Source: an uncultured virus (IMG/VR IMGVR_UViG_3300012041_000021) (taxonomy: Duplodnaviria; Heunggongvirae; Uroviricota; Caudoviricetes). Taken from it: a stretch of DNA of 64,000 bases. Numbering within the stretch: the stretch's first letter is position 1; the number at the start of each line of letters is the position of its first letter. Shown here piece by piece: positions 2,307-62,792 of this stretch. Both the position numbers and the translations under genes were made by a program. The DNA lies in the IMG/VR virus record IMGVR_UViG_3300012041_000021. One strand, written 5' to 3'. The notes beneath the pieces are model-generated. The model did no database searches. It saw nothing but the letters and a program-made list of their open reading frames with translations, and was not told where the DNA came from.

Positions 2307-5099
2307 TTAATTCTTGACATTTTTGTCAATACTGTTTCTAAAGCTATTCTCTTTTGAAGTTTGCATTTGCTCTCTCTTGATTTGAATATCTTCAGCTCTC
2401 ATTCTAAGCTCTTCGTCAATCTTCTTCATTTTAGCTTCTTCTGCTTTTGTCTTTGTCTCTAAAGCATTTTCTTTCATGGAAAGTTCTCTGTCTTTATAAT
2501 CATTGTCAAGAGCTTGTTGAGTAGCCTCATTGATTTGAGCATATCCGCTTTCTGCTGCTTGATTAGCAGTAGCTCTTCCAAGTGCGTTGATTCTTTCTGC
2601 TTCTATTCTAGCCTCTCTGTCTAAAGCTGATTCAGATGCTTTAAAGTCTCTTTCTGCTTGTGTCTCTTGAGCCTTAGCTTGTAATTGTTTGTCTACTAAT
2701 TGTTGTTCGTGGTCTCTTTGAGCTTGAGTTTCTTTCTGTGTATTTTCTCTTGATTGTCTAGCAACTGCAACTAATTCTGTGAACGTGTCTGCGGTATACA
2801 TTTCTGCATATCCTAATACGTCTGCTCCTAAAGTATTTGTTTTTAATAGAGTATCTTTGAAGGTCTCTATCTCTCTACGCTTCTTAGGGTCGTTAACAGG
2901 TGTTAAACTTAATCTTCTTAGAGGGAAATCCGCGTCGGTCAAGTTCATGTAATGTTTATCTCCATCACTTGCTGTGAATACGAAATCAACGTCTATGTAT
3001 TCTTTTTGGCAATATTGAGCTACAGCTAAATGTAATTCCATAGCTTTTGTTCTAGCTATCGACATGTCTGTAAAGATATCTGCTGTTGCATCATATTGTG
3101 CTTCTGCTCCTTGTTGTACTCCGGTTGCTGTTTCATAAGTGGTTGCTTCTCCTAATCTTTGTGGAGTAAAACCTACTTGCTCTAAAGCTTTTTGGAAGTA
3201 GTAGTTTGACAGTTGAATACGACTGTTTATTTGTTTGTCAAAAGATACATCCTGAACCATGAAAGTATTCATGTTCTGCGCTCCTTCTAAATTCTGTTTC
3301 TTAGTATCTAAAGGTACGAAGCCAATGTCTTTAGCTAAAGAGTGTAATTTCTCTAAAGATTCTTCAATCGTTCCGTGGTCTTTGTACTCTGAAGGTAAGA
3401 AGTTAATGTCAAATAAGAAGAACATTCCAATCTCTTTTTCAAGTAAATTGAAAATCTGATTTAAACAGATGTTATAACCAATTTGATATGGTCTTAATCT
3501 CTGCGCCATACCATTAGTTATGATACCTGCTACAGGAAGTTTAACGTCAAATATGTTACTGTCTCCTTTTATTTGGTATGGAAGTGGTTCGATGTCTAAG
3601 TATAAATCTTCTGATAAGAATGAATTACCTGCATTAATTTTAATTCCTTTCCATATTTCCGGCACGTAAAACTCATACATTGTGTTATCCTTTAACTCCT
3701 CTTTTCTTAAATCAGAAAGGGCTTTATTGGATACTTTTTTAATCTCATGAGCTTCTATGAATTCCGGTAACAGTTCATCTGTTACAATCTCTGTAGTTGA
3801 ATAACCTTGTTTAGTGGTGTAATTTAAGAACCACATCTTTTTCCAACTTCTCCAATATGCTTCAGTTACTTGCAATAAGTCCGTTCTTACAGTGATGTCG
3901 TCTCTTCTGTGTTGACTATATCCATAACCTAAGTAGTTATTGTTTTGGAAAGGGTGTAACCATGAAGGTACTCTTTGTTCTCCATCCGGCGTGTCTATAA
4001 CATTTTCCCCCATAGGGATGTCAAGAGCGTCCTGCATTTGAAGTCCTAAATCGTAATCATAGTAGTTGTGGAAAGGTAGTAATTGGTTTTGACCGAAAAA
4101 GTGACTGTTCCAAGAGCTAGGTTTTGCATTATCTCTTGCGTTCCCGGCTGCTTCGTATTTCTTTTGCAGGTCTTTAATTTGAATTGCAGTCATTAAGTGA
4201 CCGTACCTTTTAGTAATGTCTGAAACAGAAATGTAGTGAATCCTTCCTACATACTCCCCGTCTTGTGGGTTTTCTGCGTTTACGTCTTTTGAGAAGAATG
4301 TTTCCAAAGGAGACCATCTTTCCGGTTTGTAATAATCATATCCTACGTAGTAGTGTCTGAAGAATCTCCCGGTAAGTAAATAATCCTCCATTTCAGTTCT
4401 ATCTAGCTTATCTAGTTTGAATCTGTCTTGGTCTTTTTCTAAAGTGTGTTCAGCCCATTCAGCCGCTTTAGTTTTGAAGTTTTTGGACATTTCTTTTTCA
4501 ATGACTTCAGGAGGAAGGATTTTAGCCTTTTCCTGTTCGACCATTTCCATGTACTGTTGCTTCTCTTCTTCGGATTTAAATTCTTGTCCCGTTGGGTTTA
4601 TCCCCATTCTTAAAAGCTCTAGTTCAAGTTCTTTTTTGAATGTCTCTGTGGCGAATTCTTGCGTGCGTCTAGTTCTCTCTCTAAGATAATCATTCTCTGA
4701 AATTTCATCAGTAGTGTCTATCTTAAAGTTGTCCTTTTGTTTAAGCCACTCTCCTACGATTTTTCTAACTAAAATTCCAATGAAATCATAGTGCTTAACG
4801 AAGGTAGGTATCCCAACGCCATCTCCTAATTCTTTAATCCTGCCTAAAATACCGTCGTCTTGAATACCATAATCTGAATATACAAGTCTTCCTTCGACCA
4901 TTTTGTAATAGTCTCTAAAGTGTGAGTTTTCAGCTAATTGTGATATACCTATGGATTCCAAAGCATCCATATTTAGATGCTTAAATGAATCCTTTTTCTT
5001 GGTGTTATCCGATACGGTTTGTGCGGGTAGCGAATTAGTGTGTATATTTGTAGAGCCCAATCCGTCATAAAACGGGTGGTTTTCGATTCCTGTACTCAT
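2307..5099 (-). CDS. Portal protein, crAss-like
   Basis: 930 aa next to terminase; long C-terminal coiled coil; size and synteny typical of crAss-like portals. Confidence 0.8.
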   Translation of the reverse strand: MSTGIENHPFYDGLGSTNIHTNSLPAQTVSDNTKKKDSFKHLNMDALESIGISQLAENSHFRDYYKMVEGRLVYSDYGIQDDGILGRIKELGDGVGIPTFVKHYDFIGILVRKIVGEWLKQKDNFKIDTTDEISENDYLRERTRRTQEFATETFKKELELELLRMGINPTGQEFKSEEEKQQYMEMVEQEKAKILPPEVIEKEMSKNFKTKAAEWAEHTLEKDQDRFKLDKLDRTEMEDYLLTGRFFRHYYVGYDYYKPERWSPLETFFSKDVNAENPQDGEYVGRIHYISVSDITKRYGHLMTAIQIKDLQKKYEAAGNARDNAKPSSWNSHFFGQNQLLPFHNYYDYDLGLQMQDALDIPMGENVIDTPDGEQRVPSWLHPFQNNNYLGYGYSQHRRDDITVRTDLLQVTEAYWRSWKKMWFLNYTTKQGYSTTEIVTDELLPEFIEAHEIKKVSNKALSDLRKEELKDNTMYEFYVPEIWKGIKINAGNSFLSEDLYLDIEPLPYQIKGDSNIFDVKLPVAGIITNGMAQRLRPYQIGYNICLNQIFNLLEKEIGMFFLFDINFLPSEYKDHGTIEESLEKLHSLAKDIGFVPLDTKKQNLEGAQNMNTFMVQDVSFDKQINSRIQLSNYYFQKALEQVGFTPQRLGEATTYETATGVQQGAEAQYDATADIFTDMSIARTKAMELHLAVAQYCQKEYIDVDFVFTASDGDKHYMNLTDADFPLRRLSLTPVNDPKKRREIETFKDTLLKTNTLGADVLGYAEMYTADTFTELVAVARQSRENTQKETQAQRDHEQQLVDKQLQAKAQETQAERDFKASESALDREARIEAERINALGRATANQAAESGYAQINEATQQALDNDYKDRELSMKENALETKTKAEEAKMKKIDEELRMRAEDIQIKREQMQTSKENSFRNSIDKNVKN

Positions 5100-5152: not shown

Positions 5153-7834
5153 TTAGTTAAAAGGGTTGCTCTTTCCTCTAGTCCCATACATCCTTTCTGC
5201 AAGTGTTTTTTGTCTAGGTTTTTTAACGTTCTCTTCTTCTCTTTTTTTCTTTCTATTTAGTACCGGGAATAGGTAGTTCTGATGTGCGTAATACTCATAT
5301 CCTAAACATGACATGAACGATGTTATCCTATCGACGTTATTGTCAGGTCGGTAAGAAATCATCTCCTCTAAAAGTCCTATGTCATTAATCAAGTCTATTC
5401 CTAGTATTTGCTTATCTTCTCCATTCTCGTCCTTGACAGTGTGTTCTGCTGTGACGTAAGCTCTTACTAAGTTCTTCAAGAATTTGATATTTTCTACAGA
5501 AGGATTCCATCCGTACTTTCTTCTTCCAATACTCTTTTGCGCCATGTCTGATTTAAAGTCAAAACTCTCTACCATCCACATATCTGTTGCTCTCTTCCGG
5601 TCTAAATACTCTTTAAAACCTAAATCGGCGTTTTCTAAGAATACCATAGCGTTGTAGGCTTTCATAGCTAAGAATATCTGTCTGTAAAGTTTGTTGTGTG
5701 GGTCGGGTCTTGAAGCTATTGAGAACACTATTCTCCCACTCCATTCGTCCCCTCCCATGCTAACTTTATATATGTGGAAAGAACCTACTGAATCTGTTCC
5801 TGACTCATCTTGTTTGTAGTCGTCAAATCCGGCTAGATACAAATATGGTACAGGTGTTTCTGAAGGTAACTCTTCATACATTACGCCGGGAGCGTCAATA
5901 TACCCACCTCCATAAGGATAGTCTGCTAGAGGTTTACTGTGCGCTGTTTCATAGTGTATTTTACCTTGAGCGTCTTCAATTAATACTACCTTTTTTCCGT
6001 GGTCTCCTGTTTCTAAGAGGTAGTGTTTTCTATTCTGTGCTTCTACAGCAGGGAAGATGTTATCTTCTGAAGACATAAAACAATCTTCAGGGTCAATTGG
6101 ATACTGAACTCTTTTCTGTTGTTCTAAAAGTTTTCCTTTTGAGCCTCCCATTTTCTTGGCTGCGTCTATTCCGTCTTTTAATAGCTTCGTGTTATTCTCC
6201 CAATTAGTTGTGTGGATTGTTATTTTCCCTAACTCTTTATCTTTGATACCTAAAAAATCTGAAAAGTTTTCTTCCTTTTTTATAAATCCATCTTCATATG
6301 CCATTTGTCCCGGAAAGTAAGTAGCAAATCTTCTTCTTTTCCAAGTGATGTGTTCCGGGTCTATGTGATTTTCTAATAAGTCCCAATCCATAGGAAGTAA
6401 ATCGTAAGCTTCCGGGTTGGATAGTACGTCTACAGCATCTCTTGAAAGGTCACTTTCCCCGCCCGTACCTGCTAATACAGTTATACACTTAAACCCATAA
6501 GGGGTTTTAAATGAAGGTAGTGCTGCTAAGTAAGGTTTTAAGAAAGCATATTTACCAATCTCATCATAGATAGAAACTGATGGTGCTAGACCTGCTGTTT
6601 TCTGTGTTTTTGATTTCGCTCCGGCTTCTAAGTTCTGTACAATAAGTGTTGAGAAAACTCTTGGAGTTTGAGAATCTTCTCTAATTCCGAAAGTTGTGTT
6701 ACCGTTTTCCCACTCCTGTTGCATAATATCTAACCTAAGAGGTTCTTCAATGAAACTCATGGAGGTCTTAACCTTACTTGTTAAAGCGTTAATATCCGAA
6801 GAACTTCCTCCAATGATAGTACCAAAAGAGTTAAATTTAGTAATTGTTCTCCAATGCGCTAAAGATGCTAAGATTACTGATTTTCCGAAACGTCTAGTTC
6901 CGTACATTAAGATTGCTTTCGCGTAGTAGTTCTCATTTTCAGGGTGAATACACTTTTTCAAGTTTTCTGCGAAGAACCATTCATTGTCCCGTAAGTCCGG
7001 TTGGATGTTCGGCTCTGAACCGTCTTTTTGTGGGATAGGTGTTCTGAAGAAGTTTAAGTGGAAATATAGCCAAGGGTGGATGAAGTATCCGGCTATAGTC
7101 ACTCCATGTTGTATCTTATTATACTCTTCTGCCCAAAATTGAAGGACTACCGGGTCTTGGTCGAAGTAGTGTTTTTTATTGTTCCATTTAGGGATATCTT
7201 TAGGATTCATGTTTATGAACATCTCCTTTGAAGTCCTTAAACTCCACTCAACACTTATATTATTTGTTTTCTCCCGGACATCTTCTCTAACTAAAGAAAG
7301 TAATTCTCTAGTTATGAAAGGTGCTTTTTTATCGTTATAGAAAACAACTTTAGATTTATCAAATTCTTCTTCGTTTTCATTGAAGTTGAATTCGGATATT
7401 TCTTTCTGTAGTTTTGTTGTTTGCCGGAAAAGTAAGTTGTGAAAAGCAATCTCTTCTGAGCGTAGGTTTTGGTAAGGTATAAGCTCAATGTCTACTTCTT
7501 CATTGTAAGAATCTGACCTGTCTATGTGGATTTTAATAATCTCAATCCCTTCTCTTACAAAGTCTTTATAAGCCTTTAAATGTGTGTCGGCAGCAGCTTC
7601 CTTGACAAAGTACTTTAAAGTGTCTGAAACCATAGCTAAAAGGTTATTCTGAACTATAGACTCATTCTTTCTGAACTCTAATTCATTGTTCAGTTTTTTA
7701 TAGGACGCATCTTCATCTGCTAAATCTCCCAAGACGGGTTTTGTCAGTGTCCAATCATTCTTTATAATATAATCCTTGTACTTACGTAACTGTGGTATTT
7801 TTTTCTTTGTGTACTCGTTGATAAAATCTGACAT
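5153..7834 (-). CDS. terL: Terminase large subunit
   Basis: Walker A-like GTRRFGKS, Walker B SIYDEIG, coupling motif LAGTGG, RNase H-like nuclease motif AGFDDY, C-terminal NVDRI. Confidence 0.9.
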   Translation of the reverse strand: MSDFINEYTKKKIPQLRKYKDYIIKNDWTLTKPVLGDLADEDASYKKLNNELEFRKNESIVQNNLLAMVSDTLKYFVKEAAADTHLKAYKDFVREGIEIIKIHIDRSDSYNEEVDIELIPYQNLRSEEIAFHNLLFRQTTKLQKEISEFNFNENEEEFDKSKVVFYNDKKAPFITRELLSLVREDVREKTNNISVEWSLRTSKEMFINMNPKDIPKWNNKKHYFDQDPVVLQFWAEEYNKIQHGVTIAGYFIHPWLYFHLNFFRTPIPQKDGSEPNIQPDLRDNEWFFAENLKKCIHPENENYYAKAILMYGTRRFGKSVILASLAHWRTITKFNSFGTIIGGSSSDINALTSKVKTSMSFIEEPLRLDIMQQEWENGNTTFGIREDSQTPRVFSTLIVQNLEAGAKSKTQKTAGLAPSVSIYDEIGKYAFLKPYLAALPSFKTPYGFKCITVLAGTGGESDLSRDAVDVLSNPEAYDLLPMDWDLLENHIDPEHITWKRRRFATYFPGQMAYEDGFIKKEENFSDFLGIKDKELGKITIHTTNWENNTKLLKDGIDAAKKMGGSKGKLLEQQKRVQYPIDPEDCFMSSEDNIFPAVEAQNRKHYLLETGDHGKKVVLIEDAQGKIHYETAHSKPLADYPYGGGYIDAPGVMYEELPSETPVPYLYLAGFDDYKQDESGTDSVGSFHIYKVSMGGDEWSGRIVFSIASRPDPHNKLYRQIFLAMKAYNAMVFLENADLGFKEYLDRKRATDMWMVESFDFKSDMAQKSIGRRKYGWNPSVENIKFLKNLVRAYVTAEHTVKDENGEDKQILGIDLINDIGLLEEMISYRPDNNVDRITSFMSCLGYEYYAHQNYLFPVLNRKKKREEENVKKPRQKTLAERMYGTRGKSNPFN

Positions 7835-10301: not shown

Positions 10302-10436
10302 ATGAAAACAAAATTATTACAATTAAGAATTGAAGAAGTCCTTTTAAAAGATTTAGAAAAGTTGGCAGAATCAAATGCGTTATCTGTATCTGCTCAGGTT
10401 AGGATGCTAATTAAACATGCACTTAAAAATGGCTAA
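10302..10436 (+). CDS. Ribbon-helix-helix (CopG/Arc-like) repressor, 44 aa
   Basis: Below ORF-track cutoff; MKTKLLQLRIEEVLLKDLEKLAESNALSVSAQVRMLIKHALKNG has the beta-strand/helix/helix RHH pattern. Confidence 0.75.
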   Translation: MKTKLLQLRIEEVLLKDLEKLAESNALSVSAQVRMLIKHALKNG

Positions 10437-11034
10437 GAATACTACACCGTATAGCCCAACTACTCAAGGAGTAGGTTATACAGGAGAGGGTAGACATGTT
10501 TGTTACATTAATGGTAAAGTTACTAAAATGTTTGACGTTTGGTCTAAAATATTTCAAAGAAGTTATAGTAAGCACTACCACAAACGATATCCTACATATG
10601 TTGGCTGCTCTGTAGATGAAAAATGGCACTGTTTTCAAGACTTTGGAGATTGGTTTGAGGAAAATTATAAGCCTGAATATATGCAAAATTGGGAGTTAGA
10701 TAAAGATATTATAGTTAACAGTAATAAAATTTATTCTACCAACACATGTGCCTTTGTTCCAAAAGAGGTCAATTACTTATTTAAAAGTACTAAAAGTTTT
10801 AGGGGTGACTGTCCTATAGGGGTGCGTAAACAAGGTGATAAATTTGTAGCCACTATTAGAATAAATAATAAGCAAACGTATTTAGGTAGTTTTTCTACTA
10901 TGGAAGCGGCATTCCTCTCTTTTAAAACAGCAAAAGAGAAGTATATTAAAGAAGTTGCAGATAAGTATAAAGACACACTAGACCCACAAGTTTACAAGTC
11001 AATGTATAGTTATGAAATTAAAATAACAGATTAA
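10429..11034 (+). CDS. HNH-like homing endonuclease with C-terminal AP2 domain
   Basis: YPTYVGCSV..W..FQDF..W, LDKDII..NKIYS..TCAFVP..VN; AP2-like PIGV...YLGSFST.EAA; start at ATG 10429 overlaps the RHH stop. Confidence 0.75.
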   Translation: MAKNTTPYSPTTQGVGYTGEGRHVCYINGKVTKMFDVWSKIFQRSYSKHYHKRYPTYVGCSVDEKWHCFQDFGDWFEENYKPEYMQNWELDKDIIVNSNKIYSTNTCAFVPKEVNYLFKSTKSFRGDCPIGVRKQGDKFVATIRINNKQTYLGSFSTMEAAFLSFKTAKEKYIKEVADKYKDTLDPQVYKSMYSYEIKITD

Positions 11035-15455: not shown

Positions 15456-16405
15456 TGGCAGTATTTAAAGTAGTAGCTAGAGACCCTAAAACAAAGAGAC
15501 AAACTAGAAAAAAAGTTTATGTTGGAGAAGCTTTTACCAAGTACTCTGAAAAGCTTATAAACCGTTGGGTACGAACAGCAGATATAGAGATTTATGAATT
15601 TAAAGATAGTATCGGAGACTACGAACTTTGGTACACTAAAACACAAGAATAATGGAAAATTATAAAACACCGACAGAAATTATAAGTAATCAAGACCATG
15701 AAGAAGAGTTGTGGTGTGTACATGAATATTTAAATAAGTTATGTGTCCCGCAAAGTAAAAACGGTTTTGAGTTAAGTATAGTTGGCAGAGTTATGGCATA
15801 TCAAAAAATGACTCATGACGATGCATATAATCAAATAAATAAATAAACAGAGATGATTATAGCATTTATAGTATTTTACTTATTCGTCGGAATGATGGTA
15901 AGTCAGTCAGCCTCCACAATTGTTGGGGGCGAAAATCTAAATAAAACAGTTTCTATCTTAATTAAGTATGTACTGATTCCTTTGGGTTGGTTCTTCTTTT
16001 TATTTTATCAAACGTTTTTAGCCGGAGAAGATGAAGAGTAGTATCATTGAAGATTTGAGAGACTACCTTAAGGGATTGGAAGAATTTCACAGAGCAAAAG
16101 AAAGAAAAATTAGAGACGAGATAAACATCTTAGAAAAAGAGAAGGGTATCAAGTGCTACACTATAGGCACTTCTAATTTAGGTCACGACAGAACACTACA
16201 TACTGTACAAACAGAAGCTTCTATAGAGGACTTACTCTACATAGACCATAAATACGGTATGAAGTACAGACACGAATCTACAACTATAGAACAAATGAAA
16301 GCCGGAGCTAAAGAAGAAGGTTTTAATTTTTTCGTAACACATTCAGAAGTTTCACAAAAACATGACGTAAAATTAGATTATTTTTGCAATTATGGCAACT
16401 ACTAA
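15455..16405 (+). other. Four small hypothetical CDSs (one hydrophobic)
   Basis: Tightly packed ORFs at 15455, 15652, 15853, 16031. Confidence 0.6.
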
Positions 16406-16814
16406 AAAGAAAACACCGCAATGGACTTTTAACGGGAGAACTATCGACGACATTGATAAGACTCCCGAAGGGTCTATCTCTTTCATTTACCGGATAACTT
16501 TAGAAGATGGAAGATACTATATAGGACGAAAGATGATGATGAAACCGAAATACACTAGTGGTAAAATGAAGGGTCAATCAAAAGGAGAGTATTCGTGGAA
16601 AACTTATAAAGGTTCTTCCAAAGAACTACTTGAAGTTTTAAAGTCCGGTATAGAATACAAGAAAGAAATCATTCAGTTTTGCTTTTCAAAGGCTGAAACA
16701 ACTTATGAAGAGACTAAAGCTATTCTCTGCACCGGAGCTTTAACAGACCCTAAAGCATTTAATTTTTGGGTTAAAGCAACTATTTATTCAAGACACTTAG
16801 AAGAAAACAGTTAA
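16392..16814 (+). CDS. GIY-YIG nuclease
   Basis: FIYRIT...YYIGRK, Y.GSS, conserved E and N. Confidence 0.75.
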   Translation: MATTKKKTPQWTFNGRTIDDIDKTPEGSISFIYRITLEDGRYYIGRKMMMKPKYTSGKMKGQSKGEYSWKTYKGSSKELLEVLKSGIEYKKEIIQFCFSKAETTYEETKAILCTGALTDPKAFNFWVKATIYSRHLEENS

Positions 16815-23366: not shown

Positions 23367-24926
23367 ATGGATAATAAATATTACACACCGGACGAGGACG
23401 AATTTTGTAAAGGGTTTGAATATGAAGTTTTTGAAGAAGCTCCGAAAGACATCGACCCTAATTGGCTAACTTTCGTACCTGTCCCTGAAGAAGATACGTG
23501 GTTTAAATTTAAATTCCCCGACCCTTACGTAGGATGGAATTTACCGTTACTTTTAAGGAGAAAGATTAGAGTTAAGTATTTAGACAGAGAAGATTTTGAA
23601 GAAGTTCTAAACCGGAAGCAATTGAAAGGAGATGACGTGGAATTAAATTTTCAAGTTATTGTTAGCGATAGGATAATGTATGAGTTTGATTATGACACAG
23701 ACATTTTGGAACTCACAGTGGAAATGTTTGTGGAAGATTTAGAAAGAGGTAAGAGTCACTGTTATCCGCTTTTTGATGGAGTAGTAAAAAACAAGTTAGA
23801 ATTAAAGAAACTCTTAAAACAATTGAAAATACAGTAATATGAATTGCTTAACTTACTTATTAGACTTGTGGCGAAGAGATAATAGAATTGTAATATATTA
23901 TAATGGAGACCATGCAAAAGGAGTTGTAGAAAATTGGGTTTTAGATTCTAATGCTCCACCTAGAAAAAAGTCTAGGGAGGATTTAGATAAATATCTTCCA
24001 CTTGAAGATTGCCACTATAAAGAAACCTTAGCTAAGGTGTTTAATTTGGACGAGAAAGATACATTAACTTTAAAAGAATACTATGACCATCTTAGATTTA
24101 GTAGCCGAGATTAGCGAGTTAGTGGAGAACGAACCGAATGATATGATTCTAGGAGAAAAGATTAGAAAATTATTAAACAAAGAGGTATGAAAGTAGAGGT
24201 AGGAGAACACGGACTTATCGAAATGAAAGAAGTCTACAACCCAATAATTTTTGACTCTAATGACGGAGAGAGATTATCTGTCTGTATGCGAGACAGTGGG
24301 TTTGCACTAATGTACGAAGGTAAACCTTATTGGGCACAGAAGGGGGAGATTACAGGATTGGAGGATTACACGGTTTTAGACCATCTTATAGCCGCGAAAC
24401 AAGAAATAGAAAAAGGAAACAGTAAAGAAGATTTAAACTCACTTAGCTTTTTAGAAGAAGCGATTAAGTGGCAACAAACTAAACAACTATGAAAACATAT
24501 ACAGAAGAAGAAGTAGAAGATTTATTAAGTACTCAAAAAGAAAACTGTTATACTGCAATATTTGCACAAACACAAGACGAAGGTCTTTTAGAGAAAGTTC
24601 TTTGCGCTCCTGAACCGGGAGGTTGGAGAAAGAAGAAAAAACACTTTGCTATGATTAAATGTGGAATTGAATATGCACCGTACATACCTACAATAGATGC
24701 AGATTTTGATATGGCTAAATTATTTGAATTTACTAATAATTTACAATTTACCCCGATAGACCCCACTCCAAAAGAAGACCCAACAGCTCTAGTAGAAATC
24801 TCAAAAGAGACTGTAGACTTTCTGAAGATGAACTGTAACGTGGAAAGAGAAAGTTATGGAGAGAACACTTACATTTTGAACAACTTAAGATTTAAACTAA
24901 TTGAAGCCGATGAAAAAGATATTTAG
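23367..24926 (+). other. Four hypothetical CDSs behind promoter TACATTTG (23340)
   Basis: ORFs at 23367, 23839, 24187, 24489. Confidence 0.6.
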
Positions 24927-25347
24927 CCTAGCAATACTAATCTGTTTATTCACTGCATGTACAACTTCAGTACCATTGACACAGACTAAAGACAATCTAA
25001 TGATTGTGAAAGCAACCCTTAACGATTACATTACTGTTCCTTTCATTATAGACACCGGAGCAAGTACTGTAAGTATCCCGGAGTCAATCTTTGAAACTTT
25101 AGTGGAAGGGGAAACAATTGAAAAAGGAGATATGCTTGCAAGCGAGAAATACATTTTAGCCGATGGAAATATAGTAGTCTGTCAAAGAGTAATGCTTAAA
25201 TCATTTAAGATAGGTAACACTACTTTGTATGACGTAGAAGCAATCATCAGTACGAATCCTAATGCGCCCTTCCTTTTAGGACAGAATGTGATTTCAAAAT
25301 TTAAGAGAATAACTATAGATTACAGAACAAACAAATTAACTTATTAA
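24910..25347 (+). CDS. Retropepsin-like aspartyl protease, lipoprotein
   Basis: FIIDTGAS and LLGQN motifs; signal peptide MKKIFSLAILICLFTAC with lipobox. Confidence 0.85.
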   Translation: MKKIFSLAILICLFTACTTSVPLTQTKDNLMIVKATLNDYITVPFIIDTGASTVSIPESIFETLVEGETIEKGDMLASEKYILADGNIVVCQRVMLKSFKIGNTTLYDVEAIISTNPNAPFLLGQNVISKFKRITIDYRTNKLTY

Positions 25348-47787: not shown

Positions 47788-48547
47788 ATGAGAGTACTGA
47801 TAGAAACATACAGACAGTGGGAGATATACTTCGACACTTACAAAGAAGATTTTTACACTGTATCAAATGAATGCGATAGAGACCAAACTAAACGTTCTTA
47901 CGCTTCAACAAAGAAGTTCATTGACGATTATATAAAGGAGAACGATACTTTTAGACCTTTTTATGTTCAAAGAATGTACACCGATATACTTAAGGTAATA
48001 GGAGTTAGAAAAGACGGAGCTTTTATGTATGAGGATAAGGATGGTAAGAAGAAACAATTCTCTAAATATGACGAAAGAAATTACTTCTTAGTTGATGAAG
48101 CAAACGACCATATCTTTGAAAAACTAGCCTTTTTAAACAAAAAAGCAGAGAATCTTAAAAAAGAGATTATAGAAACAGAAGACAAAGTTATTAAGGTAAC
48201 AGTAGAAGACTACCGTAAAACATTATAAGATGGCAAGAAGAGGAACAGGCGATGATTGGGGAACGAGGTTTAGTATTGTACTTATATCCCTAATATTTAT
48301 AGTAGTAGTATTAGCTTTCACAAGTTGCGAGGCTGTAATACCTGATACAAAGAAATATGAAATAGTTTTGGAGGTGCATTATCCAACTAGAATAGACACT
48401 GTTAAGATTGTAAACGAAATGAGTTACTATCCTTATTTATTCTCTAATAGAGGGAGTAACGATATAGCGGGATTCACAACAACAGCACCAATTAAAGTAA
48501 TATCAATAAAAGAAATTAAAAGCGTAGCGCATGAATCAAAAGATTAG
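47788..48547 (+). other. Hypothetical CDS and a lipoprotein (48230-48547, FTSC lipobox)
   Basis: ORF track. Confidence 0.6.
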
Positions 48548-49502
48548 GAATCTACAGTATGAGAAATTACTGTTTGTAGACATTGAAACTGTCAGAGATA
48601 TTGAAAACTTCGACGAAAATCATCCACACTACGACAATTGGGCGTGGAAACAAAGAAACAAGGAAAATAACCAACTGTTAACAACAGAAGAGAACATCGC
48701 TATTTACAACAACAAGGCGGCTTTATTAGCTGAATGGGGTAAGATTGTGTGTATTTCAGTAGGGTTCATTAAGGATGAAGAGCTACGTATTAAATCCTTT
48801 ACCGGAGAAGAGAAGGACATCTTAAAAGAGTTCAAAGACTTAGTAGTATCTACAGGTAGAATGGTAGCCGGACATAACATTATTGGTTTTGACGTACCTT
48901 TCATGCGTAAGCGTTGGGTAATTAATGGATTAGGAGAGTTTCTTTCAGAGAAACAAGGTAACGACGTATATCAAAAACCTTGGTTGTTGGACGACAGTTT
49001 ATTTGACACTATGGTGGCTTGGAAGGGTTCAGGCTTCGCTAATACCTCTTTAGAAGAGTTGTCAATGTCATTTAAAATCCCAACAAGTAAAGATGTCTGT
49101 CATGGGAATCAAGTGAGTGAGTTCTATTATTCAGGACGATTGGAAGAGATTAAAACTTATTGTGAGAAGGACGTAGCTGTAGTAGCAAATGTTTTAAGAT
49201 TTTGGAAGGGAGAGTCTATTTTAGAGCCTATTTTTATAGGGGAATCAGCAGAAACTACAGCAGAAATCAAAGCAGTGCCTATCTTAGAAAAGATTTACAA
49301 AGCTTCTTCTATTGATGCAGATACATTTAAAGAAATACAGAGTCTTTTGAAGAAAAAGAAAATGACCAAGAAGGACAGAGTGATTGTAGAAGACATGCTA
49401 GTTAAAATTTACATTAACAATGAAATGTTTAAAACTGATACTCAAATAGTTAAGGATATTAAAAAATTAGAAATTAAAAACTTATTAGATGGAGTTAAGT
49501 AA
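48531..49502 (+). CDS. 3'-5' exonuclease (PolB-like / DnaQ fold)
   Basis: FVDIET, GHNIIGFDVPF, YCEKDV (ExoI-III). Confidence 0.9.
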   Translation: MNQKIRNLQYEKLLFVDIETVRDIENFDENHPHYDNWAWKQRNKENNQLLTTEENIAIYNNKAALLAEWGKIVCISVGFIKDEELRIKSFTGEEKDILKEFKDLVVSTGRMVAGHNIIGFDVPFMRKRWVINGLGEFLSEKQGNDVYQKPWLLDDSLFDTMVAWKGSGFANTSLEELSMSFKIPTSKDVCHGNQVSEFYYSGRLEEIKTYCEKDVAVVANVLRFWKGESILEPIFIGESAETTAEIKAVPILEKIYKASSIDADTFKEIQSLLKKKKMTKKDRVIVEDMLVKIYINNEMFKTDTQIVKDIKKLEIKNLLDGVK

Positions 49503-50241
49503 AATAGATTTACCTAGAAAATACGAGTATAAGGAAGGTGAGTCAAGACAGGAATACCAAAAATATAACGGTTGGAATAAAGTTTCTTACAGTCAAATCA
49601 CCTCCTTTTTGAGTGATGATTACAAAGGCGATTATTTCGCAGGGTATTTTATGGGTATTAGAGATGGAGGGAATATTTTTAGTTATTTTGGGAGTGCGTG
49701 TGGTGATTACTTAAACAAGCAAGACCAACGTATTGACGAATACCTTTCAAAAGAAGATAAGGAAACATTAGATTCTATAGAAAGACCTGATAATGCTGTG
49801 TACGAGTATGAAATTTTAATTAATTTAGAACCATTTGGACTAGAAAAAACAGTATTACAAGGATTTTCAGATATTCAATATGAAGTAGCACATAAAGTTT
49901 TAAATGTTCACGATTATAAAACACTAAACCTTGATAAAAAGAAAGACTTTTATGAGTCTGATGACTATCAACAGTTGAACACTTATGGATATGGATTAGA
50001 GGAATTGGGCTTTTCGATTAATAAAACATCTGTTTTTGGATTAGGGCGACAAGGAAATACAACAGATACTACAGCTTATAGTAAAGTAGGAAACCCTCTG
50101 TGGTTAAGATTAAGTGGAATAGTTGAAGAAATTGACAGACCTTATAACAGGGAAGAGGCGGAGAAATATATTTATAAAATAGCAGAAACTTGTAAGAAAA
50201 TAAGCGAGTATAAGAGAGTATACGAGAAATATTTTAAATAA
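49489..50241 (+). CDS. PD-(D/E)XK nuclease
   Basis: SYSQI, LQGFSD, HDYKT, QLNTY. Confidence 0.8.
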   Translation: MELSKIDLPRKYEYKEGESRQEYQKYNGWNKVSYSQITSFLSDDYKGDYFAGYFMGIRDGGNIFSYFGSACGDYLNKQDQRIDEYLSKEDKETLDSIERPDNAVYEYEILINLEPFGLEKTVLQGFSDIQYEVAHKVLNVHDYKTLNLDKKKDFYESDDYQQLNTYGYGLEELGFSINKTSVFGLGRQGNTTDTTAYSKVGNPLWLRLSGIVEEIDRPYNREEAEKYIYKIAETCKKISEYKRVYEKYFK

Positions 50242-50928
50242 GTGGAAAAAGAAGATAGAAGGTGTTTTGTATACAGGCATAGAAGATTAGACACCAATGA
50301 AATTTTCTATATAGGAAAAGGCACAACAAGTAAAAAATTTTTAAATTCTGAATCCGATAAGAAAAAATTCGTAAGAGCGTTTTCTAAAAGAAATAGAAAT
50401 CAATGGTGGGTTAATATAAGTAAATTAGGTTATGAAATAGAGATATTAAAGACTAATCTTACTGAAGACGAATCTAATGATTTAGAAGAGTTGTTAATAA
50501 CTACTTATGGTAGAAAAGATTGTTGTGGAGGCACTTTAGTTAACTTAACTGATGGAGGGGAAGGAGCTATTGGTCGTATTATGAGTGAAGAGCAAAAACA
50601 AGAAATAGGTAAGCGCAACTCAGGGGTGAATAATAAGTGGTTTAAAATAGCCTCTGAATTACATCCTATGTACGGAAGGATAGGAGAATTAAATCCTTAT
50701 TTTGGCAAAACTCACTCGGAAGAAGTAAGAGAAAGTATGAAGAAACCTCATCTAAGTGCTAGAGGTAAAGGTCATTTTAGGTCTAAAGTGGTTTTACATT
50801 TATTAACAGGGATTTTTTACGATTGTGTAAGAGATGCAGCAGAAGCATTTGGCTTAAATTATAGCACGTTAAAGAATAATTTAAACGGAACAAATAGAGT
50901 TAATAAAACAGATTTTATAATTATTTAA
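50242..50928 (+). CDS. GIY-YIG homing endonuclease with NUMOD3-like repeats
   Basis: FVYRH...FYIGKG, LVNLTDGGEG, HPMYGR / NPYFGKTHSEE. Confidence 0.85.
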   Translation: MEKEDRRCFVYRHRRLDTNEIFYIGKGTTSKKFLNSESDKKKFVRAFSKRNRNQWWVNISKLGYEIEILKTNLTEDESNDLEELLITTYGRKDCCGGTLVNLTDGGEGAIGRIMSEEQKQEIGKRNSGVNNKWFKIASELHPMYGRIGELNPYFGKTHSEEVRESMKKPHLSARGKGHFRSKVVLHLLTGIFYDCVRDAAEAFGLNYSTLKNNLNGTNRVNKTDFIII

Positions 50929-52453: not shown

Positions 52454-53413
52454 ATGAGAAAAATTCTTATCTTATTGGCGGCATTGCCGCTTGTATTTAC
52501 TTCTTGTACGAAAGAAGAAAACCCCACAGAAAGTGGAACAACAGCTTCAGTAACGCACAGAGGATGTGCTTCACATGAAGTTCATGAACAACAATTACGA
52601 GAAAATCCTACTCTAGCTCAAAAAGAGCGAGAAATTGAAGCTTTCACTAAACATGCTATCGAAACAGGTCGTCTAGTTAACGGAAAGATTGAGATTCCGG
52701 TAGTTGTGAATGTTTTGTGGAGAACTTCAGCAGAGAACATTTCAGATGCTCAAATTCAGTCACAGATTGACGTTTTAAACAAAGACTTCAACGGTGCTAA
52801 TGCAGAGTTTAACAACATCCCTCCGGCGTTTGACGGGTTGCAAGCCAATGTAGGTATCTCCTTCGTTTTAGAGAAGGTTGTTCGTAAGCAGACAACTAAA
52901 GTATCGTGGGGAACTGCGGACGCTATGAAGAAAGACACTAAGCGGTTTGGCGGAATTGCACCAACAACACCTAGCACACACCTTAATCTTTGGGTTTGCA
53001 CAATCGGTGGTGGTATCTTAGGGTATGCTCAATTTCCGGGCGGTAGTTTAGCCACTGACGGAGTTGTTGTAGACAGTCATTATTTCGGTAATATCGGGAC
53101 TGTATCTTCTCCTTATGGCGCAGGACGTACAGCCACTCACGAAGTAGGACATTGGATGAATCTTCGTCACATTTGGGGAGACACAACTTGTGGAACGGAT
53201 TATGTAGCTGATACACCGACTCACAACGCCGCTAACTACGGTAATCCAACTTATCCTCACTATAGTACTTGTACAGGAACACCTATCGAAATGACCATGA
53301 ATTACATGGATTATACGGACGATAAAGGTATGTACATGTTCTCTAACGGTCAGAAGGACAGGATGTTATCTGTCTTTGCTCCGGGCGGAGTGAGAAATTC
53401 ATTCGCACAATAA
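52454..53413 (+). CDS. M43 (pappalysin/ulilysin) zinc metalloprotease, lipoprotein
   Basis: Lipobox FTSC, RGCA Cys-switch-like propeptide, HEVGHWMNLRHIWGD, Met-turn MNYMDY. Confidence 0.92.
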   Translation: MRKILILLAALPLVFTSCTKEENPTESGTTASVTHRGCASHEVHEQQLRENPTLAQKEREIEAFTKHAIETGRLVNGKIEIPVVVNVLWRTSAENISDAQIQSQIDVLNKDFNGANAEFNNIPPAFDGLQANVGISFVLEKVVRKQTTKVSWGTADAMKKDTKRFGGIAPTTPSTHLNLWVCTIGGGILGYAQFPGGSLATDGVVVDSHYFGNIGTVSSPYGAGRTATHEVGHWMNLRHIWGDTTCGTDYVADTPTHNAANYGNPTYPHYSTCTGTPIEMTMNYMDYTDDKGMYMFSNGQKDRMLSVFAPGGVRNSFAQ

Positions 53414-53479
53414 GTTAAATTTGTAAATACAGGCATAAGCTAATGAGAAAAAGCAACTAAGACCCTGATTTACATGGTA

Positions 53480-53569
53480 GAAGAGGAAGTTCAATTGGAG
53501 AAACAGTAGCGTTCCGAAAGAGGTCAGCTCTTGCGCTAAAGGTTGGGGGTTCGAGTCCCCCTCTCTTCG
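53480..53569 (+). tRNA. tRNA-like RNA with 17-nt hairpin insertion in the anticodon loop (identity unassignable)
   Basis: Acceptor GAAGAGG/TCTCTTC, D-arm GTTCAATTGGAGAAAC, T-arm GGGGG-TTCGAGT-CCCCC, discriminator G, no encoded CCA. Confidence 0.75.
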
Positions 53570-53587
53570 CAAAATAAATTAAATAAG

Positions 53588-55017
53588 ATGGAAAGACCTA
53601 AATTAGAAGATTTTTACGACCAAAGTGACCCAAGAGGTATATCATCAAGTGAGCGTGACGAGTACATGACAGCACTTAAAGTGTATGAAGGTTGGAAACG
53701 TAAGCGGTATGAAGATACTTATAAGTATAATCCTATTATGGAAGTTCCTATGCCTATAACAGATAATACACCCGAAACACCTCTTGAAGCCTTTATCGCA
53801 GAGATGACAGAAGGTATGGATAATCCTCAAGCTAGAGTAGCTAAACAGAGAGGTATCCTATTAGGAGTTCAGTGGCAAAAAGAAAGGATGTACACAGAAG
53901 ATGACTTAAAAGCAGCTCATTGGAATGGGTGGGCTCAGAGAGAACAACTTGATAACCTACATTTCCCTAACGGTCTTGATTACGAGGAGAAAGAAGAATA
54001 TGTTTTTAATGAATGGTTAAAAAATACTAAATAACTATGAAAATACAAATTGATGAAAAGTACCATTTAGAAAACGATGGTGCTAAAGGATGCTCTCTAG
54101 TCTTCTCGGAAATTCGGGAAGTAAAGAAACTAGACAAAAAGACTAAACAACCTACCGGAGAATTGGGAGAAAAACTGCATCAAGATACTTGGTATTTCCC
54201 TCACAGTAAGATGGCTTTGGAGAAGTATACTGAACTTACCGGACAGGACGTTGATTCTTTGGAAGAGTTTATTTCTGTTACTAAAACACTGACAGAAACT
54301 TTAGAGAAGATTTACAAGCAGTTTCACGAAGCAAGAATGGAATTTTTTAAATAGTAGATATGGTAAACAAAGTAACAATTGAAGAAGAACCGACTTTATT
54401 TTTTGACATTAAAGAATGTTCTATAGAAACTGACGAAGACCACAGAAAAGGGTCAAGCTATTTTAGAACAGATATTATTGAGTTCAAAGAAGAAGATAAG
54501 GAATATTATCCTAAAATAGAAAACTTTGAACAGTACGTAGGGACTTGGCAAACAAATACAATTATTGACGACCATGAATACGGAACAGATGAAAAGTTCA
54601 GTGTATTAACAAGAGTGGAGAAAGTAGAAACAGTTAGTTATAAATGGGTAAATAAATATGAGTGATTACGAAGCACACAGAGGAAGGTTAATTCCTCAAT
54701 TTAGATTAGAAGATGAGTCCGATTTAAACTATTTAAATAGGGTAGCGGAGCAGGAAGTCACTGAAGAGGAGTACAACGACTACGATGGTATTGAAGAAAC
54801 ACTTAGTGAATTAGATTTGTACGAAGATTTCTTCTATGTAAACGGTACTCTCTATAAAAATGTAGACCACGTAGAAGCGAGTCCCTATCACGCTCAAAAT
54901 TTAGAAGGAAATGATATTAATGGATACTCTTATTTTATGATGTTCTATAATGGAGGAACTTGCCTCTCTGAAATGATTGAAAATGGTTTAAACAAATTAA
55001 ATAAAAATGACAAATAA
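53588..55017 (+). other. Four hypothetical CDSs
   Basis: ORFs ending 54034, 54354, 54665, 55017; the first likely starts at ATG 53588 rather than inside the tRNA. Confidence 0.65.
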
Positions 55018-61433: not shown

Positions 61434-62792
61434 ATGAAAACAATACATTTTGTTACCCCGACTTTACTTTCCTACATAGATTTAATGTCTATGGGCGGTT
61501 CAGAAAAAGCAGACGACGATACAAAGATTGGGACTTACTGTTCAGGTTTGAAGTTCTCTATGGCTCTAGCTCACAGAAACAATGTTAAAATAGGTATTAC
61601 GGTCTACGACACTGAAGACATCTTTGAAGATGTGGAAGGTATGAACAGAGATAGAAAAACTGAATACACTGTTGGAACATATACAGAAAGATGTGGACAG
61701 ACCGGAAAAGAAAAAGAGCTGTTACAATTAACTAAAACTGTTTCAGACCCACGTTTCTTTTCACTTAATTCAGTTGAACCTATCTCTCAAGAAATTATCC
61801 CTACCGGATTCTCTACCAAGTTAGGTATTGATTGGTCTTTGTGGATGCTTTTAAGAGAAATCTATAGTAACATGGTCGATGAAGGAGGGGAATATCACGA
61901 AATCAGTTGTCCGATTGTTAATTATGGAACAGTTGTTTCTCTTAGTTTTGAAGAGGGTAGCGAGTTTGATGAAATTTGGAATAATCGTCATCTTTACATT
62001 AATGAGGAAGAGCCTTTGTACGTCATCTCTCCTTCAGTGGATGTTTTAGCGAATGAGGAAGGATATCTTAGAATCTATAAACAGAACATTCTAGTTTATG
62101 AAGATAAAGAAATTCCAAGTAGATTTGCTTACAATGTAAGGTTCGGGAGTATAGATGAGAAAAGGATTTTATCTGACGCTTATTGTGTAGAAGGAGATAT
62201 AGTTAATGCTATTAAGAACACTAAGAATGAGGAGTATCTTAGAGAAATCATAGATTCAACTTTTCATTGTGCAGAGAAAGAGTTTCTTTCAAGTAGAAGT
62301 ACTTACGGGTCTGCTTCCGATTTAATTCATGACATAGCTTGTGAAATCTATGAAGAGTGCGGAGAAGTTAAATCTTATAGTTGGGTTATCAACTTGATTA
62401 AGGAAAGAGAAGATTGTAAAATTGCCGGAAAGAAACTTAAGTCAGTTGGGGATAGTATTTGGGCTTACAGTACTACTGTTGAAGTACAAAGTGCTCCTGA
62501 AACTTTCTCTACACCGGAAGTGATTGAAACAGAAGAAGAAGTTTTTGAAGATTCTTTTGTCGCGGAAATTAGAAAACACTATAACTTTGATTTAGATGTT
62601 GAAGTTAAAATGGCTAAATTGAAAGGAAGTAAAGTTATTGCAGACAAGTACTGTAAATGCTTAATCATTGACGATTCTTTTGATTTACAGGAAGACTTCC
62701 CCGAATTTATTGTGCAGTATTTAGACTTAACTAGACAAGGTAACGTAGTTGAGAATTTATCTGTTTTTATTTGTGAACTTTTAAAAAAATAA
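61434..62792 (+). CDS. GHKL/HATPase-like domain protein
   Basis: KIGTYCSGLK (IG.FG.GLK-like) and LREIYSNMVDE motifs. Confidence 0.5.
   Translation: MKTIHFVTPTLLSYIDLMSMGGSEKADDDTKIGTYCSGLKFSMALAHRNNVKIGITVYDTEDIFEDVEGMNRDRKTEYTVGTYTERCGQTGKEKELLQLTKTVSDPRFFSLNSVEPISQEIIPTGFSTKLGIDWSLWMLLREIYSNMVDEGGEYHEISCPIVNYGTVVSLSFEEGSEFDEIWNNRHLYINEEEPLYVISPSVDVLANEEGYLRIYKQNILVYEDKEIPSRFAYNVRFGSIDEKRILSDAYCVEGDIVNAIKNTKNEEYLREIIDSTFHCAEKEFLSSRSTYGSASDLIHDIACEIYEECGEVKSYSWVINLIKEREDCKIAGKKLKSVGDSIWAYSTTVEVQSAPETFSTPEVIETEEEVFEDSFVAEIRKHYNFDLDVEVKMAKLKGSKVIADKYCKCLIIDDSFDLQEDFPEFIVQYLDLTRQGNVVENLSVFICELLKK

Follow-up and report, generated by a model that had tools for sequence, protein, structure and literature searches.

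What does a large phage do with a tRNA gene whose anticodon loop is filled by a hairpin? This question was raised by a locus in IMG/VR record IMGVR_UViG_3300012041_000021, from which a stretch of 64,000 nt (the window) was analysed. The window is part of a large tailed phage with 34% G+C that was previously unsampled and is present in freshwater-sediment and groundwater metagenomes from several studies. At positions 53480-53569 on its plus strand lies a 90-nt gene of the tRNA-Arg(CCG) type, with an interrupted anticodon loop and no encoded CCA, which was detected with Rfam RF00005 and with ARAGORN when introns were allowed. The reading that we favour, with modest confidence, is that an insertion into a tRNA-Arg(CCG) gene has produced a tRNA-shaped RNA that is not spliced, does not decode and is either dead or reused.

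The interrupted gene and its insert

RF00005 matches 53480-53569 (+) exactly, at 37.5 bits (gathering cut-off, 29 bits) and E 2.8e-4 for the 64-kb window, and this is the sole Rfam match in the window both at gathering and at E<=0.5. Its alignment places a 22-nt local insert where the model expects 5 loop positions. No gene was found in the window by ARAGORN at default settings; with introns allowed, a check that the preliminary description of the locus had proposed, the program returned tRNA-Arg(ccg)i(40,15), with a 15-nt intron, as its only call in 64 kb. The insert is not an assembly artefact, because contigs from other runs show identical sequence: contigs of run X2 (53322-53873) and run X4 (53457-54176) cover the whole gene and the insert with 0 differences, and two contigs of run X3, ending at 53501 and 53510 (depth ~2), are identical over the stretches covered. 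Contigs of run X5 gave no cover over the gene.

The 5' acceptor strand GAAGAGG (53480-53486, +) pairs with TCTCTTC (53562-53568) in both the ARAGORN structure and the minimum free energy (MFE) fold, giving a 7-bp stem with one G-T pair; the discriminator G is at 53569, and CAA, not CCA, comes next. The T arm GGGGG-TTCGAGT-CCCCC (53545-53561, +) is canonical and is preceded by a 5-nt variable loop, AGGTT (53540-53544, +). The D arm (53489-53504, +) has the stem GTTC/AAAC with a C13.A22 mismatch and the loop AATTGGAG, which carries G18G19 and A20. The gene thus has the 7-bp acceptor stem, the GTTCRANYC T loop and the D-loop GG of a canonical tRNA; a 7-nt anticodon loop on a 5-bp stem is absent, as are U8 (A8 stands at 53487) and a Watson-Crick 13:22 pair, both of which belong to the tRNA core tertiary set. 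Among 61 distinct phage tRNAs of the fetched loci, 54 have T at position 8 and 3 have A there, so A8 is uncommon and not unique. The preliminary description had reported canonical acceptor and T arms, a D arm with one mismatch, a 5-nt variable loop, A at position 8 and the lack of an encoded CCA, all of which were recovered here, the two arms by the sequence, Rfam and ARAGORN together. In E. coli, the tRNA-Arg identity set consists of A20, C35, G36 or U36, and A73 or G73. A20, C35, G36 and G73 are present when the gene is read in the ARAGORN and Rfam frames, and by these rules its Arg identity set appears intact.

The departure lies in an extended 'anticodon' arm (53507-53538, +), in which TAGCG (53507-53511) pairs with CGCTA (53534-53538) around 22 nt, TTCCGA-AAGAG-GTCAG-CTCTT-G, just as first described. 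In the ARAGORN structure TTCCGA (53512-53517, +) supplies U32, U33, the anticodon CCG (53514-53516) and A37 of the presumed ancestral loop. The insert called by ARAGORN with introns, AAGAG-GTCAG-CTCTT (53518-53532, +), is a 5-bp hairpin with a 5-nt loop. The excess over a normal loop had been put at 17 nt, a figure that holds only in the standard (Rfam) frame, where 24 nt are enclosed, with a G27.A43 mismatch and an extra G-C pair at 32:38; in the TAGCG/CGCTA frame the excess is 15 nt. The junction is ambiguous and falls at 37/38 (after TTCCGA, with G following the insert) or at 38/39 (after TTCCGAA), and only junctions retaining TTCCGA keep U33, the anticodon CCG and a purine at 37. In the MFE fold U33 pairs with the G at 53533, UCCGA is left as a 5-nt bulge carrying the anticodon, and the anticodon stem and insert helix stack into one rod of roughly 12 layers. 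Because the anticodon is held in the bulge of a continuous helix in this fold, the RNA as encoded is predicted to be unable to present an anticodon loop or to decode, in keeping with the anatomy of the earlier proposal, a tRNA body whose anticodon-loop hairpin blocks decoding as written.

The first six bases of the insert, AAGAGG, are those of acceptor positions 2-7, and its last five, CTCTT, those of positions 67-71. For a random 6-mer the chance of such a match is P = 0.016 in the exons and P = 0.0008 in the 5' acceptor strand, for a likeness that was recognised post hoc. The hairpin resembles a small-scale duplicate of the acceptor stem of the same gene, and a self-copy of this kind would be the signature of a local, self-templated mutational event and not of an imported element. 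A repeated or mobile hairpin element was ruled out: 4 near-copies of the insert (<=3 mismatches) occur in the window against 2.18 expected, a number reached by 18 of 100 shuffles, and none of the 31 exact copies in IMG/VR is in a tRNA context.

No homologue, with or without the insert, was found in IMG/VR, the JGI metagenomes, the GTDB genomes or GenBank phages. An exact 24-mer spanning the T arm and the 3' acceptor strand gave 0 matches in IMG/VR, the JGI metagenomes and 185,579 species genomes, and a gapped anticodon-arm pattern that allowed a 0-30 nt insert gave one match each in the genome and metagenome collections, both by chance and outside any tRNA. GenBank phages held no match for a 2.7-kb region or for the downstream protein, and there the 90-nt gene matches the generic T arm only. 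As neither its 3' half nor its anticodon arm recurs in any cellular or viral tRNA, the gene does not appear to be a fresh capture.

The RNA island of related phages

True relatives were identified through the terminase, which gave 16 IMG/VR contigs, 14 of them at 67-68% identity. A tRNA-model scan of the records of 15 terminase relatives (the record behind L083 was left out) gave 24 tRNA matches in 12 of the 15 records, all 70-84 nt and none interrupted. The window's tRNA-like gene is in none of the relatives scanned, and their canonical tRNAs are identical to its exons at 38-49 of 75 positions, which is generic similarity. Contigs that have just the reductase (32 loci) or just the M43 peptidase (6 loci) in common with the window were ruled out as relatives for want of further synteny; no tRNA lies near the shared gene in them, and five whole records among them gave 41 tRNA matches of 62-86 nt, uninterrupted. 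As a separate observation, an unrelated 175-kb phage (G001) with a 24-tRNA cluster has a 153-nt gene (L052:708-860) that ARAGORN with introns calls 'tRNA-Leu(UAG), 61-nt intron' and that RF00005 misses.

In the relatives, homologues of the window's 3'-5' exonuclease gene (48531-49502, +) and of the next ORF (open reading frame; 49489-50241, +) are followed by an RNA island of 1.5-2.5 kb. In three of five relatives (G006, G007 and G008) a homologue of the window ORF at 54037-54354 (+), with 38-47% identity by tblastn, comes just 3' of the island. The window gene occupies the same syntenic interval, which in the window has additionally gained a NUMOD3 endonuclease gene, small ORFs and a peptidase gene.

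The relatives' island holds a permuted transfer-messenger RNA (tmRNA), a tRNA-Met, and tRNA-like RNAs of 111 nt and ~143 nt. The tmRNA, of the permuted, two-piece type, was found with RF04321 at L104:6790-7052, L105:6755-7015, L106:7178-7443 (minus) and L108:6756-7017, and more weakly at L107:6750-7049; four of the five relatives exceed the cut-off of 47 bits, at 51-65 bits, and the fifth falls short of it at 42. Tag peptides such as DNVYQLGGVQLRAVA* were read by ARAGORN in three of four records, with a different tag in L104. The Rfam scan found no tmRNA in the window.

Immediately upstream of the tmRNA lies the 111-nt RNA (L104:6672-6783; L106:7450-7561, minus; L107:6251-6361). It has canonical acceptor, D and T arms and an additional hairpin of 6 bp, and a long arm with internal loops replaces the anticodon arm; it escapes the Rfam tRNA model, and ARAGORN reads it as 'tRNA-Gln' with an 18-nt intron. 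Its identity between records is 93-95% against 74-81% for the flanking genes, and it therefore appears to be under strong purifying selection. The ~143-nt RNA is the last gene of the island (L105:7269-7411; L108:7435-7576; L104:7305-7447; L106:6338-6481, minus). Compensatory changes in 5 of its 25 predicted pairs keep the acceptor, D and T stems, and its central domain is about 85 nt, called by ARAGORN as 'tRNA-Leu' with an 83-nt intron. Judged by these patterns of substitution, both oversized families seem clearly to be under selection. Because the relatives keep them at this locus, non-decoding tRNA-shaped RNAs would appear to be normal for this lineage and locus. The island, with its permuted tmRNA and two conserved oversized tRNA-like RNAs, is a more robust finding than any reading of the window gene.

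Covariance models built without the window gene gave it 17.9 bits for the 111-nt family (R1; ordinary tRNAs, 7.9-27.9) and 14.9 bits for the ~143-nt family (R2; ordinary tRNAs, 11-21), in a membership test that is insensitive, as the models are governed mostly by the large central domains. The gene is connected with the ~143-nt family by blastn (48 nt at 77%) and by a MAFFT alignment, and shares with it the leader, the purine-rich 5' acceptor strand and the trailer; these shared parts give a hint of homology only, which the model test did not support.

Further odd tRNA-like genes were seen in the relatives. In G013 (L108:7237-7576) a 104-nt tRNA-like gene (7270-7373) has entered the 5' flanking sequence of the 143-nt element, where ~24 nt are duplicated; it has a perfect GGAGU/ACUCC arm, the loop CCUCAAA with possibly a UCA anticodon, and a long extra arm. 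Going by this insertion, the RNA island would be an insertion hot spot. In G006 an 85-nt gene of the tRNA-Met(CAU) type with a short extra hairpin arm (L105:6664-6748; Rfam tRNA, 33.7 bits) adjoins a normal tRNA-Arg(UCU) and a normal tRNA-Met. G006 has the richest set of odd tRNA-like genes and is also the relative in which an Rnl2-type ligase, described below, occurs. A weak tRNA-like gene of 70-71 nt with a CAU anticodon loop was found in L100-L103, L093 and L096 (~1500-1575; Rfam 24-32 bits, L093 at 32.2 exceeding the cut-off of 29); in several relatives it lies ~300 nt upstream of the thioredoxin homologue, and it has no counterpart in the window.

Readings of the locus

In the favoured reading, a gene derived from tRNA-Arg(CCG) would have gained a clean 15-nt hairpin in its anticodon loop, on the 3' side. 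What RNase P, RNase Z and the CCA-adding enzyme chiefly require of a substrate is the acceptor/T minihelix. Since this minihelix is intact, the transcript would be cut from the co-directional gene array and given its CCA as for any tRNA; the insert would stay in, and the RNA would go unused for decoding. If it is kept, it may act as a processing signal or bind a protein or nuclease.

The first support for a non-decoding RNA is that no known means of removing the insert was found: no splicing motif, no ribozyme and no enzyme in the window. A bulge-helix-bulge (BHB) motif, which has a 4-bp helix between 3-nt bulges where exon and intron meet, was sought, and whatever the register, 0 candidates had the complete 4-bp central helix. 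Group I introns are ribozymes at least some two hundred nucleotides long. No group I core was detected (no Rfam intron match in the window at E<=0.5), and a group I intron was ruled out, the insert being only 15 nt long and no other Rfam family being present in the window. In scans of 127 window ORFs with Pfam and 71 with PHROGs, no RNA ligase, RtcB, polynucleotide kinase-phosphatase, Tpt1, 2H phosphoesterase or splicing endonuclease was detected.

The second is that decoding demand is minimal. CGG, the codon for the CCG anticodon, is the rarest Arg codon (8/346, 0.93 per 1000), and AGA makes up 71% of Arg codons, both counted over 26 ORFs. Further support comes from the core, which deviates (A8, C13.A22, G27.A43) while the minihelix does not, from the insert repeating the gene's own acceptor stem, from the fold that puts the anticodon in the bulge of a continuous helix, and from the selected oversized tRNA-like RNAs that the relatives carry in the syntenic interval.

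Within this reading, a recently disabled tRNA gene in a remodelled RNA island and a tRNA-shaped RNA kept for a non-decoding role are about equally likely. The self-copy insert, a codon that is hardly in demand, a deviating core, the lack of homologues and the loss of tmRNA and tRNA-Met from the island speak for the former; the pristine minihelix and identity bases, the lack of a cellular source sequence and the precedent of the relatives' selected RNAs speak for the latter.

Several points weigh against this reading. The acceptor stem, T arm, T loop, G18G19 and Arg identity set are all intact, features that a dead gene in a phage of 34% G+C would not long retain, and the good condition of this orphan gene hints at selection. 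With any 15 nt taken out, ARAGORN again calls a tRNA-Arg, which scores above the default threshold, though this is true of any clean insertion and is no evidence for splicing. The tRNA inserts that Lak phages carry at the same loop position are described as conserved across cohorts (PMC6784885), and by analogy some phage inserts of this kind are probably processed. Tests did not demonstrate specific homology of the gene to the relatives' tRNA-like families, its scores (17.9 and 14.9 bits) lying within the range of ordinary tRNAs. The enzyme negatives, finally, cover only 64 kb of the phage and not the RNA-repair enzymes of the host.

The strongest alternative, which we regard as possible and rather unlikely, is that the 15 nt are a mini-intron. 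A protein nuclease, encoded by phage or host, would cut on both sides of the hairpin, and an RNA ligase would join the ends. The product would be a functional tRNA-Arg(CCG) with the loop UUCCGAG or UUCCGAA, serving a codon that a low-G+C host reads poorly. The insert stands at or beside the canonical 37/38 site and leaves U33, CCG and A37 untouched in a tRNA whose body and Arg identity elements are intact, and published phage tRNA inserts that start at 37-41 are conserved and, in the passages drawn on here, unexplained (PMC6784885). The preliminary description had suggested a protein-spliced-type intron near 37/38; the position is compatible (37/38 or 38/39), but the BHB motif, a splicing endonuclease and RtcB were not found. 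The absence of the BHB motif counts against splicing, as does the lack of any nuclease or ligase candidate in the window, and among the five relatives, which are among the most complete, RtcB (0/5) and tRNA_int_endo (0/5) are missing too. One of the five, G006, encodes a 345-aa protein (L148:617-1654) whose sole Pfam domain is an Rnl2-type RNA ligase (PF09414, 42.2 bits), which is a point for resealing, but neither it nor the ligase of G008 has a homologue in the window. That of G008, at first an apparent RNA ligase, was ruled out as such and is an ATP-dependent DNA ligase, and window ORF 61434-62792 was ruled out as a ligase homologue. Four of the eight CGG codons counted fall in the terminase gene, a point for splicing, but the codon is nearly unused overall, and as the gene occurs in no relative, neither conservation nor covariation backs the hairpin. 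Protein-dependent tRNA splicing is not known in bacteria. Literature searches judged by titles and abstract openings, full-text in the second case, returned no paper reporting protein-dependent bacterial tRNA splicing and none explaining short phage tRNA inserts.

More doubtful still is the specific proposal that the hairpin is the shortest tRNA intron seen so far in a bacterial virus, its acceptor-stem mimicry and discriminator-like G forming a handle for excision. Here the tRNA end-processing enzymes, or a nuclease yet to be identified, would excise the hairpin, and an Rnl-type ligase would reseal the nick in the loop. If true, the bacterial world would possess a route of tRNA splicing that depends on proteins and is related to the tRNA-within-tRNA inserts found in Lak megaphages.

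One form of the non-decoding reading, which we think improbable, is a selected anti-defence decoy: with enough of its tRNA-Arg features left to be bound or cleaved, the unspliced RNA would titrate a tRNA-Arg-directed nuclease or a tRNA-sensing defence protein off the host tRNAs. The preliminary description had also suggested a non-decoding mimic or decoy, which is consistent with the fold. The RNA retains the acceptor/T minihelix and is predicted to expose its anticodon bases in the bulge, the relatives keep conserved non-canonical tRNA-like RNAs at the locus, and an arms race between tRNA-targeting defences and phage tRNAs is documented (PMC11464382, PMC11555353, PMC12445682). As far as the portions of the defence papers used here go, however, phage tRNAs replace the depleted tRNAs of the host (outright only in PMC11555353 and PMC12409363) and are not non-decoding decoys. 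The gene, moreover, is an orphan with no conservation signal.

A feature of the DNA itself, either an attachment or recombination site on a tRNA gene or the scar of a homing endonuclease, is very improbable. The window has three homing-endonuclease-type genes, and the uptake of the 104-nt tRNA-like gene with its ~24-nt duplication in G013 indicates that the locus suffers insertions; but no integrase was found among the window ORFs in the Pfam (127 ORFs) and PHROGs (71) scans, the nearest endonuclease gene is 2.5 kb away, the tRNA is complete and not a 3' fragment, and its 3' half matches no bacterial tRNA in 185,579 species genomes. Least credible is an uninterrupted tRNA-Ser(CGA) with the hairpin as its long variable arm, which ARAGORN -ps85 without introns gives at the same coordinates as tRNA-Ser(cga) and which was rejected because the call is made only below the default threshold and the anticodon stem would be mismatched (G.G and G.A, with C at position 33), Rfam and the MFE fold pairing TAGCG with CGCTA instead.

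Genomic setting and known systems

The gene stands in an array of genes on the same strand. Its upstream neighbour is an M43-type metallopeptidase gene (52454-53413, +; Pfam PF05572, E 1.3e-12), which ends 66 nt before it, and the ATG of the downstream ORF (53588-54034, +) comes 18 nt past it. For the latter, no Pfam or PHROG family and no relatives were found (query 53591-54034, without the first Met), and a protein atlas search gave unnamed viral clusters only. The separate hairpin noted earlier just upstream, at 53422-53474, does exist, but it is not significant (-9.1 kcal/mol, z -1.07; an equally good fold in 29 of 200 shuffles). Nothing resembling a promoter or a terminator was found on the plus strand within 53000-54000.

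Elsewhere the window carries a portal gene (2307-5099, minus) and a large terminase gene (5153-7834, minus), and encodes a bacterial-type RecA (PF00154), a GroEL-type chaperonin, PhoH and phage structural genes, as well as ribonucleotide reductase, thioredoxin, ThyX and the 3'-5' exonuclease. The nearest deposited phage by GroEL is Flavobacterium phage 'immuto', at only 36% identity. The homing-endonuclease-type genes, assigned by Pfam and PHROGs, are of the HNH (10417-11034), SegE-like GIY-YIG (16392-16814) and NUMOD3 (50242-50928) types, the last lying directly 3' of the syntenic exonuclease genes, where it borders the remodelled interval of the RNA island. Unusually for a tailed phage, a small ORF (24901-25347) has a retropepsin-like aspartyl protease domain (PF13650, E 1.5e-13).

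The closest published parallel is in Lak megaphages, whose tRNA genes have 'enigmatic' introns, phage tRNA introns being stated there as unreported before (Devoto et al. 2019, PMC6784885). The possible introns listed are 23-141 nt long and begin at positions 37-41 (Table S6, PMC6784885). As in the window gene, the Lak genes are phage tRNA genes detected only with intron-aware prediction, the insert lies just 3' of the anticodon (37-41 in Lak), and in the passages drawn on here it is not group I and has no known mechanism of removal. The Lak introns are described as conserved across cohorts at 23-141 nt, and one has a tRNA-like fold, whereas the window insert is 15 nt (below the Lak range), a bare 5-bp hairpin copying the acceptor stem, in an unrelated phage with no relatives showing conservation. 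The window gene is a very short new case of known but unexplained phage tRNA inserts.

Protein-spliced introns of archaea and eukaryotes are described as short and as lying one nucleotide 3' of the anticodon, as here (PMC4090602). The window gene differs in having no BHB motif and a bacterial-type phage context, with no splicing endonuclease in the window or five relatives. Group I introns of bacterial and phage tRNAs are likewise reported to interrupt the anticodon loop (PMC3984707), but the window insert is only 15 nt long and has no Rfam intron match. Phage tRNAs that counter defences, in the accounts of PARIS and a T5 tRNA (PMC11464382) and of retron evasion (PMC11555353), resemble the window gene as phage genes of the tRNA type whose anticodon-loop region is off the host norm; unlike it, they are presented as made during infection and as letting infection proceed despite cleavage of host tRNAs, whereas the window RNA would be non-decoding unless the insert is removed.

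With the relatives' tRNA-like RNAs the gene shares its genomic interval, canonical acceptor, D and T arms and a non-canonical central domain, but theirs are conserved central domains of 60-95 nt, their covariance models rate the window gene no higher than ordinary tRNAs, and the window lacks a tmRNA. Like a tRNA pseudogene it has a disabling lesion, some core deviations and a codon class that the genome hardly uses; unlike one, it has a single clean lesion, and all processing helices and loops are perfect.

What the gene means for phage tRNA biology depends on the fate of the insert. If it is merely a broken tRNA gene, it is ordinary. If the unspliced RNA is kept by selection, it would join the relatives' RNAs as evidence that tRNA-like RNAs with no decoding role are kept next to a tmRNA gene in some large phages. 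If it is spliced, protein-dependent tRNA splicing would extend from archaea and eukaryotes to bacteria, and the gene would be a minimal, easily synthesised substrate for finding the missing machinery behind short phage tRNA introns. The gene is of value as an inexpensive, well-defined test case and not as a discovery.

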